Part shown: positions 53,576-58,843 of the stretch, piece after piece
Position numbering within the stretch: position 1 is the stretch's first letter
Layout: each line of letters opens with the position of its first letter
Assembly: GCA_027067555.1 (NCBI GenBank)
Contig: JAMOVU010000009.1
Coordinates: forward strand, 1-63,915
Length of the DNA: 63,915 bases
Reading direction: 5' to 3'
Source: Candidatus Aminicenantes bacterium
GTDB lineage: Bacteria; Acidobacteriota; Aminicenantia; JAMOAD01
Made by a program: the position numbers and the translations under genes
The notes under the pieces: generated by a model
What the model was told of the DNA's origin: nothing
The model's database searches: none
The model's input: the letters and a program-made list of their open reading frames with translations, nothing else

Positions 53576-54487
53576 TTATAAAGAGGTTATAAGTCTCATT
53601 TTATTTGCTATATAGCCAGGGGTTGAGACTATTTTCATAAAAGTTCCCATGGATAAATCGGGAAAAGAAAGAGCAATTCTGTATCTTCCGTGTAGCATTA
53701 CTACTTTGTTTTCCATTACCAATAATTCATAAGGGAGGAAAGTTATGTGTTTGGGGTTTTGTATATCTATTTTTGGTAAAAATAGTTTTTCTCCCTTTTC
53801 CCCAAGGAGTCCTATCCCAAATAGAGTTAGATGTTTTGCTGGATAATCTATCTGATATACCTTTTTTATTCCTCCTATTTCTCTTTTCAGGTTTTTGTTT
53901 ATTTTTTTTATTATGGTTTGATAATCAGTCTTTTTCTTTATTATTACAACATCATCGAAATAGGGCATTCCAAACATATAGTGATAGTTTCTTAGTTTTT
54001 TGACCGATAATCCTTTTTTGGAACCATAAGGTGTGAATTTTCCATTTTTAAGCCATCTAAGGGAAGCTCTTATTAGAGTGTCTATTTTTTCATAATTTTT
54101 TGAAACAACGGGATAATTTTTCCTGAAATAAGCATTTCCCCAGTAAAATGGATTTGTGTAGGATATTTCTATATTTCCTTCTCTGTTTTTATATAATCCT
54201 ATTCTTAGAACGGAAGCGAATGCTGTTAAGCCTCCTATTTTCTTTACGGTCTGCTTGATTAGGTCATGTGTTATGCAAATTATAAGTCGGTTTTTATCAT
54301 TCATTGGCGAATATTTTCCTGCTATAACAAAATTTTCTTCTATTAACTTTTTAGTTAATGTTTTCTCTACATTTTCTATTTCTCCTTTTTCTATTCCTGC
54401 TAAAATATAGGGTTTTAACAGGTTTTGCCCATTTAAAAATATTGCAAAAATGATGATAATAGTAAATAAGATAACAAATTTTTTCAT
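53576..54487 (-). CDS. Exported conserved hypothetical protein (possibly tandem DUF302-like alpha/beta domains)
   Basis: Signal peptide, AAAGGAGG SD; conserved-looking blocks ISYTNPFYW, LRNYHYMFGMPYF, LPYELLV, GRYRIALSFPDLSMGTFMKI. Confidence 0.6.
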   Translation of the reverse strand: MKKFVILFTIIIIFAIFLNGQNLLKPYILAGIEKGEIENVEKTLTKKLIEENFVIAGKYSPMNDKNRLIICITHDLIKQTVKKIGGLTAFASVLRIGLYKNREGNIEISYTNPFYWGNAYFRKNYPVVSKNYEKIDTLIRASLRWLKNGKFTPYGSKKGLSVKKLRNYHYMFGMPYFDDVVIIKKKTDYQTIIKKINKNLKREIGGIKKVYQIDYPAKHLTLFGIGLLGEKGEKLFLPKIDIQNPKHITFLPYELLVMENKVVMLHGRYRIALSFPDLSMGTFMKIVSTPGYIANKMRLITSL

Positions 54488-54702: not shown

Positions 54703-54731
54703 TTGCAAGCCTGAGGTTTTTCCTATAAAAT
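54703..54731 (+). promoter_or_regulatory. sigma70-type promoter, leaderless-type, for the DHH-like/YgjP pair
   Basis: TTGCAA (54703-54708), 17 bp, TAAAAT (54726-54731), then ATG after 5 nt; no SD. Confidence 0.6.
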
Positions 54732-54736
54732 AATTA

Positions 54737-55786
54737 ATGCCTATTGAAAAATTTGAGTTTGTGGATTATGGAGAAGAGCTTTTTCCTCAGGAAGGTACAA
54801 TAATTGTTGATGTAGGGAAAAAACTTGAAGAGGGGATTTTAGATCACCATCAGCCTGATGCAGAAAATGAGTGTGCTGCCACCTTGGTAGTAAAACATCC
54901 CGAACTTATTCTAAATCACCTGAAAGGGGGAAAAAGTTTCAGACTGATAACCCATCGTTATCCTGATTTTGATGCTGTTTCATCTGCGTTTTTAGTTGAA
55001 AAAGTTGTGGAAAGAGGAAAAGTGACAAATTCAATGAAAAAAATTGCGGAATACGCCAAGGTTGTTGACTCCTCCAACCTTCCTCCCTCCATTCCTCTTG
55101 AAGATACTCCCTACGCTGTTCTATACTCGATGTTTCATCAGATAAATTATGACAGGGGAACCAATCAAAAGAATAAGGTAGATTTTATAGGAGAAAAGAG
55201 AATGAAAATAGGGTTTGAGCTTTTAACAAGACTTGAAGAGCTTGCTGAAAGAGGAGAGGATATTTTTACTGCAATGAGATTAATGTCCGGATACAGAGAT
55301 TATGAAAGAGCAAGGAAAAATATTTTTGAAGATTATAAAAATTATTTAACAGATACTATGAGGGCTTCTACAGGAGAGATAGAGCTTTTAACAAATGATG
55401 GAAAAGCTCTTAAAAAGGTTGACTATTTTTTTATTATAAACCCCTCTTCTTATCTTTTAAAGGACTGGATAAAAAGAGATTATACAAATTCACCTTCAAA
55501 AAGAGGTTTTTCTCTTTTAATGAGTTCTCTTTATCCGGGAAATTTCATAATTGCAACATCACCTTCTTCAGGTACCTATTTAAAAGGCCTGGGTGAAATT
55601 TTAAACAGAGTGGAGAGAGAGAAGAGAGAAGAAGCGAAGAAGCCAGTGGCAGAGTGGTACAAGGGGGATTCTCCTTTTTTTAATTACAGAATAGTTGCAA
55701 GTCCGAGTGATGGAACCGTGCTTACGAAAGAGGAAGTCATATCCTGTTTTAAAGAATACCTTGAAGCAATTAAGAAACTTGTTTAA
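54737..55786 (+). CDS. DHH-like phosphoesterase with permuted motif order (uncharacterised)
   Basis: IIVDVG (aa 22-27), ILDHHQ (34-39), CAATLV (46-51), LITHRYPDFDA (70-80). Confidence 0.65.
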   Translation: MPIEKFEFVDYGEELFPQEGTIIVDVGKKLEEGILDHHQPDAENECAATLVVKHPELILNHLKGGKSFRLITHRYPDFDAVSSAFLVEKVVERGKVTNSMKKIAEYAKVVDSSNLPPSIPLEDTPYAVLYSMFHQINYDRGTNQKNKVDFIGEKRMKIGFELLTRLEELAERGEDIFTAMRLMSGYRDYERARKNIFEDYKNYLTDTMRASTGEIELLTNDGKALKKVDYFFIINPSSYLLKDWIKRDYTNSPSKRGFSLLMSSLYPGNFIIATSPSSGTYLKGLGEILNRVEREKREEAKKPVAEWYKGDSPFFNYRIVASPSDGTVLTKEEVISCFKEYLEAIKKLV

Positions 55787-56349
55787 TGAAAAAAGTAAAA
55801 ATAGAGGGGATTGAATTTAATATTCTTTTTAAAAATGTTAGATATTATAGGCTGAGTTTTGAAGAAGGTCTCTTTTATCTCACGCTTCCGAAAACTTTTC
55901 CTGAAGGAAAAATAAAAAATTTGATAATAAAACACAAAAGATGGGCAAAAAACAGATTATTGGAGTATAAAAAGATTAAGGAATTAGAAAAAGGAGAGGT
56001 TATTTATCACAGAGATGTTTTTGATTTTGAGAATATGGTTTTATCTATTTTAAAAGAGGGAAGCAAAAAAATGGGCGTACATTTTAATAATATTAAATTC
56101 AGATATATGAAATCAAGATGGGGTAGCTGCTCTTCTAAGGGAAACATAAGTATTAATAGGTATTTAATGTTTTTTCCCTATGAATTAATTGAATATGTTG
56201 TTTACCATGAGCTTGCTCATCTTAAGTATAAAAATCATGGAAATGGGTTTAAAAATTTTTTGTCAAAGTATCTTCACGATTGGGAAAGGAGAAAAAAGGA
56301 ACTTAAACTTTGGGGGCTTCTTCTAAAAGAGAGAAAGTTTATCCCTTGA
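55786..56349 (+). CDS. YgjP/DUF45 (SprT/M48-like zincin) family protein
   Basis: MKSRWGSCS..G.I.IN, IEYVVYHELAHL...NH..F. Confidence 0.9.
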   Translation: MKKVKIEGIEFNILFKNVRYYRLSFEEGLFYLTLPKTFPEGKIKNLIIKHKRWAKNRLLEYKKIKELEKGEVIYHRDVFDFENMVLSILKEGSKKMGVHFNNIKFRYMKSRWGSCSSKGNISINRYLMFFPYELIEYVVYHELAHLKYKNHGNGFKNFLSKYLHDWERRKKELKLWGLLLKERKFIP

Positions 56350-56374
56350 AAGGGGTGATACAATAATTTATAAT
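56346..56374 (+). promoter_or_regulatory. sigma70-type promoter of nnr-tsaE-lepB
   Basis: TTGAAA (56346-56351), 17 bp, TATAAT (56369-56374); AAGGAGGTG SD before ATG 56400. Confidence 0.7.
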
Positions 56375-56399: not shown

Positions 56400-57974
56400 A
56401 TGTATGTTTTAACCGTAAAAGATTCAAGGGCTGTTGATAGTATTGCAATGGGTGATTATAGATTTCCAAGTGAGCTTTTAATGGAAAATGCCGGAAGATC
56501 GGTGGTTGATGCAATAGAAAATAGCTTCGGAGAGGTTGAAGGAAAGTTAATAACAATTGTTTCGGGAAAAGGAAACAATGGAGGGGATGGAATTGTTGTG
56601 GCAAGACATCTTTACAATAGAGGGGCTATTGTTTACCTTATTCTTTTAACTTCTCCTTCAAAGCTTAACAGGGATCCCCGGATAAATTATAAGATTCTGA
56701 AAAATTATAATGTTGATATTTTTATTGTTAAGGATGAAAAAAAATGGAAAAAGTATCTGGATTTGATAGAAGAATCCGATATTGTTGTTGATGCTATCTT
56801 TGGAACCGGATTTAAGGGTAGTGTGAAAGGCTTTTATAATGCTGTTATAAGAGATATTAATGATAAAGCAAAAGCGATAGTTTCCATTGATATTCCTTCG
56901 GGTATCAATGGGGATACTTTGATTCCTGAGGGGAATCATATATATGCGGATCTTACGGTAAGCATGGCAAGTTTTAAACCCGCCCATGTATTGCCTCATT
57001 CGGAGGAATATTGCGGACACACTGTTGTAGGAGATATAGGAATCCCACCTGAAATCATACAGGAAAGAGCTCTTTTTAAAATTCTTTCCCCCGAGGATTT
57101 TCCATTTTTTCCGATTGAGAGAGATTTAAATTCTCACAAAGGTGATTTTGGGCATCTTGTTATTTTGGGAGGAAGCAGAGATAAGAGCGGAGCTGTTATA
57201 ATGGCTGCAAAAGCAGCACTGCGAGCAGGGGCCGGTTTGGTAACTGTTGCCTCTGTACCATCTGTAATTGAGAGAGTGGCAAATAGTGTACCTGAAGCTA
57301 TGTTTTATCCTTTGGAAGAAAGGGATGGCCTTATTTATTGTAAAGATCAGAAAGAATTTTTGAATTTTTTAAAGGATAAAACAGCTCTTGTAATAGGACC
57401 GGGAATGGGTGTAAGCGATGAACTTAAGAAACTTATTTTAAAACTTACCAAGGAGCTTTCCATTCCAATAATAATAGATGCAGATGGTCTCAATAATTTG
57501 AAAGAAGGTGTGAAAAAAATAAAAAAGAGAAACATAGTTTTTACACCGCATCCCGGAGAATTTGAAAGAATTTCGGGAATAAAAAAAGAGAAAATAAAAA
57601 ATAACAGATGGGTTGAGGGAATAGAGTTTTCAAAGAAATACGGAACAAATCTTGTATTGAAAGGATATAAAACACTGATATGTTTCGGGGATGGGGATTG
57701 TTATGTAAATCCTGCCGGAAACCCGGGAATGGCAACAGGAGGAAGCGGAGATGTGCTTTCAGGAATTTTGGGAGGTATTTTGGCTCAGAAAGAGGCATCA
57801 TCTCTTTTTGAATCCTCTGTCCTCTTTTCTGTTTTTATTCACTCTTTGGCTGCTGATCTTGCAGTGGGTGAAAAAGGGGAAGATTCTCTTATTGCAACAG
57901 ATATAATCGATTATCTTCCTAAAGCTTTTGGATATTTAAGAGAGGACTATGAAGGTTATGATGAAGAAGTTTAA
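56400..57974 (+). CDS. nnr: Bifunctional NAD(P)H-hydrate epimerase/dehydratase
   Basis: LMENAG, GKGNNGGDG, DAIFGTG, DIPSG, SHKGDFG, GPGMG, DADG, TPHPGE, ATGGSGDVLSG. Confidence 0.97.
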   Translation: MYVLTVKDSRAVDSIAMGDYRFPSELLMENAGRSVVDAIENSFGEVEGKLITIVSGKGNNGGDGIVVARHLYNRGAIVYLILLTSPSKLNRDPRINYKILKNYNVDIFIVKDEKKWKKYLDLIEESDIVVDAIFGTGFKGSVKGFYNAVIRDINDKAKAIVSIDIPSGINGDTLIPEGNHIYADLTVSMASFKPAHVLPHSEEYCGHTVVGDIGIPPEIIQERALFKILSPEDFPFFPIERDLNSHKGDFGHLVILGGSRDKSGAVIMAAKAALRAGAGLVTVASVPSVIERVANSVPEAMFYPLEERDGLIYCKDQKEFLNFLKDKTALVIGPGMGVSDELKKLILKLTKELSIPIIIDADGLNNLKEGVKKIKKRNIVFTPHPGEFERISGIKKEKIKNNRWVEGIEFSKKYGTNLVLKGYKTLICFGDGDCYVNPAGNPGMATGGSGDVLSGILGGILAQKEASSLFESSVLFSVFIHSLAADLAVGEKGEDSLIATDIIDYLPKAFGYLREDYEGYDEEV

Positions 57975-58380
57975 AAGTTTTTCTCCTGATAATACAAAAA
58001 GAATAGCGGAAGAATTTGCTAAGGAGTTAAAAGGGAATGAAATTGTATATTTAAGCGGAGAGCTTGGAGCAGGAAAAACACTTTTTATAAAAGGAATGGC
58101 AAAGGTTTTTGGGGTGGATGAGATAGAGGTTAATTCTCCAACTTTTACTTTAATGAATGTTTACAAAGGCAAAGTTGAGATATATCATCTTGATCTTTAC
58201 AGGCTTTCTCCGGAGGAAGCAGAGGAGATGATAACTGACTTTGTGGGTAAAGGCCTTATTATTCTTGAATGGGGGGATAGGCTTAAGGATGATATCTTTG
58301 ATCTTCCCGGTTTTTTTATTGAGATAGATATAATTAATGAAAATGAAAGGGATATTAAAATAGAGAAAATTGAAAAATAG
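57949..58380 (+). CDS. tsaE: tRNA threonylcarbamoyladenosine biosynthesis ATPase TsaE
   Basis: GELGAGKT, SPTFTL, YHLDLYRL, LEW; follows nnr. The true start may be 57958 or 57961. Confidence 0.95.
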   Translation: MKVMMKKFKSFSPDNTKRIAEEFAKELKGNEIVYLSGELGAGKTLFIKGMAKVFGVDEIEVNSPTFTLMNVYKGKVEIYHLDLYRLSPEEAEEMITDFVGKGLIILEWGDRLKDDIFDLPGFFIEIDIINENERDIKIEKIEK

Positions 58381-58843
58381 ATTTTTGTTTTTTCTTTTAA
58401 TCTTTATTTTTGTAATTCTTTTTTTGACTGTTGAGAATTTTTTTGTCTTCAGAGTATCCGGAAGCTCTATGTATCCCACTTTTAAGGATGGAGACTACAT
58501 TCTTGTGATGAAAAGCAAAAATTTTAAAATTGGAGATATTATTGTATTTTTCAGTGGGGAAAATGGAAGCAGTGAAAAATTGGTTAAAAGAGTGGTGGCT
58601 GAGAAAGGGATGGCCCTTGAGTATGTAAAGGATGGGAAATACATAAAAATATCAAGCGGAAAGGAATTTAATAAAGATTCTTATATAATACCCGATGGTT
58701 TTCTCTTTGTTATGGGAGATAATCTGCAAACTTCTTATGATAGCAGGGAGGGATGGCTTATTAACAGGAATCTTGTTATTGGAAAAGTGATCTGTCGCCT
58801 TTTTCCACCGAAACTATTTTTTGTTAATTTCTTGAAAAAATGA
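58370..58843 (+). CDS. lepB: Signal peptidase I (short S26 type)
   Basis: TM helix, SGSSMYPT (catalytic Ser), GDIIVF, LVKRV (Lys), MGDN..SYDSR; TTG start. Confidence 0.9.
   Translation: MKNRFLFFLLIFIFVILFLTVENFFVFRVSGSSMYPTFKDGDYILVMKSKNFKIGDIIVFFSGENGSSEKLVKRVVAEKGMALEYVKDGKYIKISSGKEFNKDSYIIPDGFLFVMGDNLQTSYDSREGWLINRNLVIGKVICRLFPPKLFFVNFLKK

Follow-up and report, generated by a model that had tools for sequence, protein, structure and literature searches.

We undertook a computational analysis of a 63,915-nucleotide (nt) stretch of DNA from a Candidatus Aminicenantes bacterium (contig JAMOVU010000009.1; the whole stretch is referred to here as the window), centered on an open reading frame (ORF) for a protein of 349 amino acids (aa) that resembles phosphoesterases of the DHH superfamily. 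Our analyses indicate that this protein very probably belongs to the DHH superfamily in terms of its fold, and that its catalytic core is likely rearranged, with the unit carrying motif I transposed. The rearrangement exchanges two segments within the N-terminal lobe and does not circularly permute the full chain. The protein represents an unnamed, uncharacterized DHH branch for which there is no Pfam, NCBIfam or PADLOC model. On balance, we favor its being a stand-alone, two-domain, metal-dependent nucleotide phosphodiesterase or phosphoesterase of this rearranged branch. DHH enzymes, among them RecJ, NrnA, GdpP, Pde2, PggH and NrN, act in nucleic-acid turnover and in switching off cyclic di-AMP (c-di-AMP), cyclic di-GMP (c-di-GMP) and CRISPR signals, and to our knowledge all members described so far share one motif order.

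Motif order and conservation

The ORF and the parts of its product that correspond to DHH/DHHA1 enzymes are as follows.

54737..55786, + strand: ORF of 349 aa with an ATG start, encoding a predicted rearranged DHH/DHHA1-like phosphoesterase of an unnamed family (ORF list, profiles and model)
54800..54817, + strand: IIVDVG, aa 22–27, equivalent of DHH motif II (D25) at the end of a beta strand (D25 and G27 invariant; placed weakly on the NrnA-like motif II by hhalign)
54836..54853, + strand: ILDHHQ, aa 34–39, DHH motif III (D36, H37, H38; invariant; hhalign E 0.0024)
54950..54973, + strand: THRYPDFD, aa 72–79, DHH motif I (H73, D77, D79), located after motif III (Pfam DHH, hhalign and PDB profile)
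55046..55069, + strand: AEYAKVVD, aa 104–111, in which D111 is the probable motif IV Asp (invariant; VIA-align rows)
55328..55783, + strand: DHHA1-like C-terminal domain, aa 198–349, without GGGH, with LKGLG (282–286), E293, W307-Y308-x-G310 and P323

Along the 349-aa chain the motifs run in the order II (residue 25), III (36–38), I (73–79) and IV (111), not in the canonical order I-II-III-IV, and the translation has no DxD motif ahead of D25 and no second DHH past D79. The first-pass annotation of the window had already noted an unusual motif order; the translation agrees exactly with the motif positions it gave, and the order II, III, I, IV proved to be conserved family-wide.

A word-seeded search identified 57 homologues of the rearranged DHH-like protein, 28 of which, with identity down to 27%, make up the core alignment. 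Invariant throughout these 28 homologues are D25, G27, D36, H37, H38, H73, P76, D77, D79 and D111, together with G284, L285, G286, E293, W307, Y308, G310 and P323 in the C-terminal domain. A wider check, with a profile built from the 28 sequences, covered 163 aligned domain stretches in 150 proteins (149 representatives of 50%-identity clusters plus the window protein). Across the aligned stretches, the Asp of motif II was kept in 132 of 137 (D25), the residues of motif III in 138 (D36), 125 (H37) and 135 (H38) of 139, those of motif I in 140 (H73), 137 (D77) and 140 (D79) of 141, and D111 in 129 of 139. The window protein has all the residues by which the DHH superfamily is recognized (DxD of motif I, Asp of motif II, DHH of motif III and Asp of motif IV), and the listed motif residues are conserved at 93–99% in the 150 proteins. 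Since the residues are retained to this extent, the family looks catalytically competent almost throughout, and the odd motif order appears to be a trait of the family. The GGGH motif by which the DHHA1 subfamily is recognized occurs nowhere in the 349-aa sequence; its place, according to the alignment and the structural model, is taken by the conserved LKGLG (282–286) at the start of a helix.

Fold and probable rearrangement of the N-terminal lobe

The Pfam DHH profile matched the window protein with 18.2 bits, under its cut-off of 28.1, and only through profile positions 4–29 on aa 70–102. The same weak match, limited to motif I, was obtained for 28 of 28 alignment members at E ≤ 0.1 (best 8.3e-6). 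Neither Pfam DHHA1 nor any NCBIfam model matched the window protein. A profile search of PDB sequences likewise reached DHH proteins only via the motif I stretch (best match 9r7o residues 9–36, E 0.014), and a second HMMER stretch, the ILDHHQ region, falls on 9r7o residues 109–121.

The AlphaFold2 model of the full protein, built with the 28-sequence alignment, scored 94.9 for the predicted local distance difference test (pLDDT) and 0.92 for the predicted template modeling score. It has the two-lobe DHH/DHHA fold: an N-terminal part with a small sheet (strands 3–9, 21–24, 34–35 and 68–73) and helices, four linker helices (125–209), and an alpha/beta C-terminal lobe (211–349). The fold check by AlphaFold and Foldseek that the first-pass annotation had proposed thus yielded a confident model, and all 14 of its Foldseek matches in the PDB at E ≤ 0.001 (TM-scores 0.23–0.41) are chains which, judging by their entry titles, we take to be DHH-superfamily members. 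They include TM1595, GdpP, PggH, Rv2837c, PAP phosphatase, PPX1, PF0399 and GAN.

The rearrangement was examined indirectly, by comparing the protein with canonical DHH proteins segment by segment. For this we used an alignment of an NrnA-like 318-aa DHH/DHHA1 ORF of the same genome with 28 relatives from the phylum (the G049 locus being left out). With hhalign, aa 58–93 align with NrnA-like residues 11–46, which span a helix, strand 1, motif I and helix 1 (segment E 7e-5), aa 35–43 (LDHHQPDAE) align with the NrnA-like IDHH at residues 109–117 (E 0.0024), and IIVDVG is placed weakly at the motif II position. A whole-length hhalign comparison with the NrnA-like profile returned the motif I stretch only; the DHH stretch emerged when the N-terminal segment was aligned alone. 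The structural alignments give two registers. In the full model, residue 1 pairs with chain residues past motif I, the alignments starting at residue 41 of 5o4z and of 9r7o, 27 of 7d62, 24 of 8a8k, 63 of 5cet, 100 of 2zxo and 51 of 3w5w. A second model, of aa 54–349 alone (30 homologous segments; pLDDT 91.6), pairs with those chains from their N-termini onward and with similar Z (7d62 9.7), the alignments starting at residues 0, 0, 5, 0, 22, 57 and 11, respectively. From the two registers it follows that residues 1–53 stand in for canonical strands 2–4, which carry motifs II and III, and that residues 54–93 stand in for the canonical N-terminal unit with motif I. In addition, VIA-align rows starting at model residues 107–111 lead to what we take to be the motif IV region of GdpP and Bacillus NrnA, and D111 is therefore likely the motif IV Asp.

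The first-pass annotation had described the protein as a circularly permuted DHH enzyme. Its assignment to the DHH superfamily with a non-canonical order stands, but the permutation stops short of the full chain, since motif IV, the linker and the DHHA1-like domain stay in their canonical place. We therefore regard the change as a segment swap rather than a simple circular permutation. In this reading, D25, D36, H37, H38, H73, D77, D79 and D111 would share one metal site, for which the two alignment registers give indirect support.

Comparison with other DHH proteins

The window protein differs from NrnA, TM1595, Rv2837c/CnpB, DhhP, PggH and the catalytic domain of GdpP in having the order II-III-I-IV where theirs is I-II-III-IV. 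Compared with stand-alone DHH/DHHA1 enzymes, it has ~85 extra helical residues between motif IV and the C-terminal lobe, and it lacks both GGGH and a Pfam DHHA1 match. The DHH domain of PF0399, the archaeal RecJ/GAN proteins and Cdc45 are larger and of canonical order; Cdc45 is inactive, whereas the window family keeps its catalytic residues. Other DHH genes exist in the window's own genome. The NrnA-like ORF of 318 aa has the canonical order (SHIRPDGDSIGS, then LIDHH, then GGGGH), and the genome also carries DHH frames of 569 and 554 aa and a weak DHH match beside a long ORF. In L085 (G000:C167:1-2365), a weak DHH match (25.5 bits) in a 291-aa frame adjoins a 378-aa ORF that by eye resembles sulfate adenylyltransferase; possibly, the DHH frame is a PAP phosphatase of the 8a8k type.

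The wider family and its fusions

When 1.84 billion cluster representatives (50%-identity clusters) were searched exhaustively with HMMER, 638 representatives of the family were found at E ≤ 0.001, 264 of them at E ≤ 1e-10. Among the best 150 of the 638, 90 are at least 450 aa long, and 88 of these were scanned for further domains (P0101 and P0085 were left out). Signaling or effector domains are fused to the module in 68 of the 88. A class III cyclic nucleoside monophosphate (cNMP) cyclase lies just N-terminal of the module in 22, several of which also have TPR (20 were recognized by Pfam and two by PADLOC PycC), and a C-terminal CorA-like domain is found in 20 (by PADLOC CorA-like models, with Pfam CorA in one). 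Less frequent partners are a Ser/Thr kinase domain on either side of the module (12), TCAD9, a kinase-like "ternary complex associated domain" (7), TIR (6, two of them with HD-CE) and caspase (1). These fusion partners are typical of nucleotide signaling and conflict systems. The remaining 20 have no recognized partner, and twelve of those are proteins of 1316–1420 aa with the module at the N-terminus (P0069, P0080, P0084, P0086, P0087, P0091, P0093, P0097, P0104, P0117, P0120 and P0130), whose ~950 further residues have no match in Pfam or PADLOC, nor, for P0069 and P0084, in NCBIfam.

The cyclase fusions bear on a reading in which the protein is a pyrophosphatase or polyphosphatase, akin to family II pyrophosphatases or PPX1, that in such fusions would clear the pyrophosphate released by the cyclase. 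The position of the cyclase directly N-terminal of the module in 22 of the 88 long relatives, the presence of PPX1 and family II pyrophosphatases among the fold matches, and the missing GGGH, which suits a specificity other than that of DHHA1 enzymes, all speak for it, yet we consider it very improbable.

The CorA-like fusions of the rearranged module have a direct precedent in NrN-CorA. In CRISPR type III systems, NrN and CorA occur as pairs and fusions in SAM-AMP signaling (PMC10600005). The DHH motif of NrN is at residues 85–87, a position which suggests that its motif order is canonical; if so, the fusions of the rearranged module with a CorA-like domain (termed here X-CorA) would be an analogous but distinct solution. 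Eight X-CorA metagenome loci were fetched, and the ORFs of six (L117–L122) were scanned with NCBIfam and Pfam; five had an X-CorA-type match and the sixth, L122, is a TCAD9 fusion. Some of the X-CorA loci have defense-like neighbors, and two (L118 and L120) are set amid ordinary metabolic genes. L119 (1-13952) has the look of a conflict island, with a STAND-like NTPase with TPR, two DUF4145 proteins, a Band-7/SPFH protein and three ORFs of 203–726 aa without any family. DUF4145 and TPR neighbors are present in L117, a WYL regulator adjoins in L121, and in L122 the TCAD9 fusion is followed by an AAA_16 protein. The window's DHH-like gene has neither a CorA part nor a CorA neighbor.

The family goes unrecognized by Pfam, NCBIfam and PADLOC. 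PADLOC has no family for the window protein or two stand-alone relatives, its matches in the fused relatives being to partner domains only (PycC, CorA-like, kinase and caspase). None of the 57 homologues has a functional name, and two have a precomputed Pfam DHH match. In the Protein Atlas, the window protein's own cluster of 266 members is labeled "hypothetical protein"; the feature matches offered there (viral cluster 0.95, DUF6687 0.93) serve as leads only, with no Pfam match behind them. No description of a permuted DHH was found by full-text literature search, a search that covered main texts and had the 2015 Nucleic Acids Research survey of nucleotide-centric conflict systems outside its scope, and "DHH" is absent from the main text of eLife 52696 (2020), on nucleoside triphosphate-dependent conflict systems. 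Searches for TCAD9 returned unrelated papers only.

The YgjP-like gene

The DHH-like ORF is followed by a gene whose start overlaps its stop codon, and a promoter-like pattern precedes the pair.

54703..54731, + strand: promoter-like TTGCAA-17 nt-TAAAAT, ending 5 nt before the ATG (9 of 12 consensus positions)
55784..55788, + strand: TAATG, in which the TAA stop of the DHH-like ORF (55784-55786) overlaps the ATG of the YgjP-like ORF by one A (sequence)
55786..56349, + strand: ORF of 187 aa, YgjP-like (DUF45) zincin with HELAH at aa 141–145 (56206-56220) (PF01863)

Both the overlap and the identification of the neighbor as a HExxH protein of the YgjP/DUF45 type, as first proposed, are borne out, the former by the sequence and the latter by HELAH and a match to PF01863 (E 8.8e-37, 127.6 bits, cut-off 26). 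The ORF resembles YgjP-like/DUF45 zincins in this family match and in its HExxH, and differs from them in being a short form, its strong match spanning profile positions 116–205 of 207. The YgjP of E. coli is reported to have UTP pyrophosphatase activity; our literature search for that activity gave nothing relevant.

From this arrangement the first-pass annotation had concluded that the two genes form a dedicated, translationally coupled module for nucleotide processing or defense, and had set linkage between homologues and YgjP as the test beforehand. In support of such a module are the TAATG overlap, the single promoter-like site for the pair, and the occurrence of the same arrangement in two further loci (L001 and L002) and in three genomes of the genus. 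The wider sample, however, shows no linkage beyond that genus. In 81 loci (80 from species-representative genomes plus the window), a YgjP homologue adjoins the DHH-like gene in three, namely the window, L001 and L002, the latter two being its closest relatives (79% identical), and clustering of three genes on each side gave the same outcome. In 121 genomes of the window's class, the DHH-like gene is present in 37 and a YgjP-like gene in 91, with adjacency in four of the 37 carriers, all of the window's genus (G000, G061, G069 and G080). Even in two other genera of the same family (G075 and G064) the genes are on separate contigs, and in other carriers for which both positions are listed they are on separate contigs or 87 kb apart (G086). 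Their distributions are uncoupled as well: of the 50 genomes of family f4, one has the DHH-like gene and 49 have YgjP, whereas in f47 the counts are 2 of 2 and 0 of 2 and in f44 they are 3 of 3 and 1 of 3. Furthermore, no YgjP-like domain is fused to the family among the 88 long relatives, and the window's DHH-like protein lacks a PADLOC match. We are therefore confident that YgjP is not a functional partner of the DHH-like protein, and the coupled module has little chance of being right. The overlap is a genus-level arrangement, a local accident and not a conserved system. For the window itself the outcome is negative, in that the DHH-like/YgjP pair is not a new two-gene system; it is the enzyme family that is worth biochemistry.

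Distribution and gene neighborhoods

The DHH-like gene is single-copy in the window's genome. Within the class, every sampled genome of six families carries it, and in three other families nearly all genomes gave no match; vertical inheritance with loss explains this pattern better than a mobile defense gene would. A tblastn search of plasmid and phage collections with the protein gave no match, and a scan of viral contigs with the family alignment gave 81 pattern matches, none of which was confirmed.

The commonest upstream neighbor on the same strand is a MutY-like gene (HhH-GPD and NUDIX_4), found in ~31 loci (including L004, L012, L018, L026 and L027), and MutY coupling is much commoner across loci than YgjP coupling. 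The gap to the DHH-like gene has a median of 5 nt in the 29 loci where it could be measured and is at most 20 nt, or an overlap, in 27 of them. Coupling this close hints at a role in DNA repair instead, for example as a RecJ-like 5' exonuclease or as an enzyme that removes deoxyribose phosphate after MutY in base excision repair. We find this improbable: neither the window nor the loci whose upstream gene is GAF-GGDEF, DUF4340 or another one show a mutY link, no repair domain is fused to any of the 88 long relatives, and the window protein has no OB-fold or DNA-binding extension. Moreover, the loci are related, so that each neighbor pattern, including the 29 MutY couplings, may represent one ancestral event.

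In another lineage, 16–17 loci (including L005–L007, L011 and L013–L017) have a GAF-GGDEF gene upstream, at a median gap of 58.5 nt. The signature of one such sequence read (L015:3845-4930) is GEYEF, not GG[DE]EF, and from this sequence the upstream GGDEF domain may be degenerate and non-catalytic. A Ser/Thr kinase gene is located divergently upstream in 13 loci. Downstream genes are variable and mostly on the opposite strand.

Proposed function

The activity we favor for the window protein, that of a metal-dependent nucleotide phosphodiesterase or phosphoesterase, would operate as follows. With the helix-strand-helix unit of motif I (H73, D77, D79) moved behind the strands of motif II (D25) and motif III (D36-H37-H38), and with motif IV (D111), the helical linker and the DHHA1-like domain without GGGH following in the usual order, the four motifs would, through their Asp and His residues, hold one or two ions of the Mn2+/Mg2+ type in the inter-lobe cleft, where the N-terminal sheet has its edge. 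A water molecule activated by the metal would then attack a phosphoester held by the C-terminal lobe, which is expected to bind the substrate and to offer LKGLG, E293 and WYxG instead of GGGH. By analogy, the metal site and catalytic mechanism would be as in canonical DHH enzymes. Candidate substrates are linear or cyclic (di)nucleotides, short oligonucleotides with a 5'-phosphate, and other signals derived from nucleotides. We give about an even chance to the substrate being a small nucleotide or a nucleotide signal, since the nearest structures are enzymes of this kind and distant members are fused to signaling domains. A nucleotide or second-messenger role, as in the first-pass annotation, remains the best guess, but the basis for it is the fusions of distant relatives and not the locus in the window.

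The protein could instead serve in housekeeping, as a nanoRNase, a phosphatase of pAp or a phosphodiesterase of dinucleotides, either redundant with the canonical NrnA or specialized alongside it, and have no signaling role in this organism. We rate this as unlikely but credible. The nearest structures include nanoRNase/pApA/pGpG enzymes (TM1595, Rv2837c and PggH) and PAP phosphatase, the single-copy gene has a vertical pattern, being carried by every genome sampled from six families, and its neighbors in the window (nnr, tsaE, lepB, nadK and a tlyA-like gene) are themselves housekeeping genes. However, the gene is dispensable, as it was not found in 84 of the 121 class genomes, including 49 of 50 in f4, and its C-terminal domain is without GGGH. 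In addition, the genome already has the canonical NrnA-like gene, the 569-aa DHH frame and further DHH genes, which makes a distinct substrate likelier than plain redundancy.

Besides the MutY coupling, several points count against a rearranged enzyme of nucleotide signaling. On the structural side, the hhalign match to the NrnA-like DHH motif is weak, covering 9 columns, and the two-register argument uses the first and last aligned residues alone. The specificity of the window protein may differ from that of all known DHHA1 enzymes, because its C-terminal domain is without GGGH. The fused relatives are only ~25–37% identical, and what their fusions indicate may not transfer to the stand-alone form. 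The five flanked X-CorA loci had no cas genes and no signal-making cyclase in the NCBIfam and Pfam scans. Finally, a class III cyclase is present in 96 of the 121 class genomes, including families without the DHH-like gene, and family f43, which carries that gene, gave no cyclase match; co-distribution with the cyclase was accordingly rejected as a lead, its presence being unrelated to that of the DHH-like gene across the class.

More tentatively, and with less than an even chance of being right, we suggest that the rearranged module may represent an unrecognized, widespread class of nucleotide-signal phosphodiesterases that has repeatedly been recruited by fusion, and the first naturally rearranged DHH catalytic core. 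If so, the module in the cyclase, CorA-like, TIR, kinase and caspase fusions would set the threshold of a nucleotide signal, perhaps a novel one, or reset it, and the Aminicenantes gene would be a free-standing form of this class. Among enzymes that degrade signals and are still missing, the family is a concrete candidate open to assay, and it provides a natural setting in which to study how a binuclear active site tolerates changed chain connectivity.

Other features of the locus

The next gene downstream of the YgjP-like ORF is nnr, which also has a promoter-like pattern ahead of it.

56346..56374, + strand: promoter-like TTGAAA-17-TATAAT ahead of nnr (11 of 12 consensus positions)
56400-57974: nnr ORF with YjeF_N and Carb_kinase (Pfam), the next gene after the YgjP-like ORF

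The first-pass annotation had assigned separate promoters to the DHH-like/YgjP pair and to nnr. Both patterns are present, but they are pattern matches barely more frequent than in shuffled sequence (11 sites in the AT-rich 2-kb region against 7.7 ± 2.7 in shuffles), and we therefore give them as description, not as evidence. Position 54703, where that annotation begins, marks the first hexamer of the promoter-like pattern and not the ORF start. Inspection of the sequence ahead of the ATG at 54737 revealed no Shine-Dalgarno-like purine run, and the pattern at 54703-54731 would yield a leaderless or near-leaderless mRNA.

A tsaE-like ORF (57949-58380) begins 26 nt inside the end of nnr (window 57949-57974) and is itself overlapped by a lepB-like ORF (58370-58843); the order nnr-tsaE-lepB is common to L001 and L002. 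Upstream, the window has a divergent ORF of 303 aa (53576-54487, - strand), whose product is hydrophobic at its N-terminus and matches no Pfam family at E ≤ 1; this ORF is not kept beside the DHH-like gene in other loci. In L001 (4257-4814, - strand) and L002 the divergent upstream gene encodes an HD_4 (RelA/SpoT-type HD) protein of 186–199 aa, in whose place the window has the unrelated 303-aa ORF.

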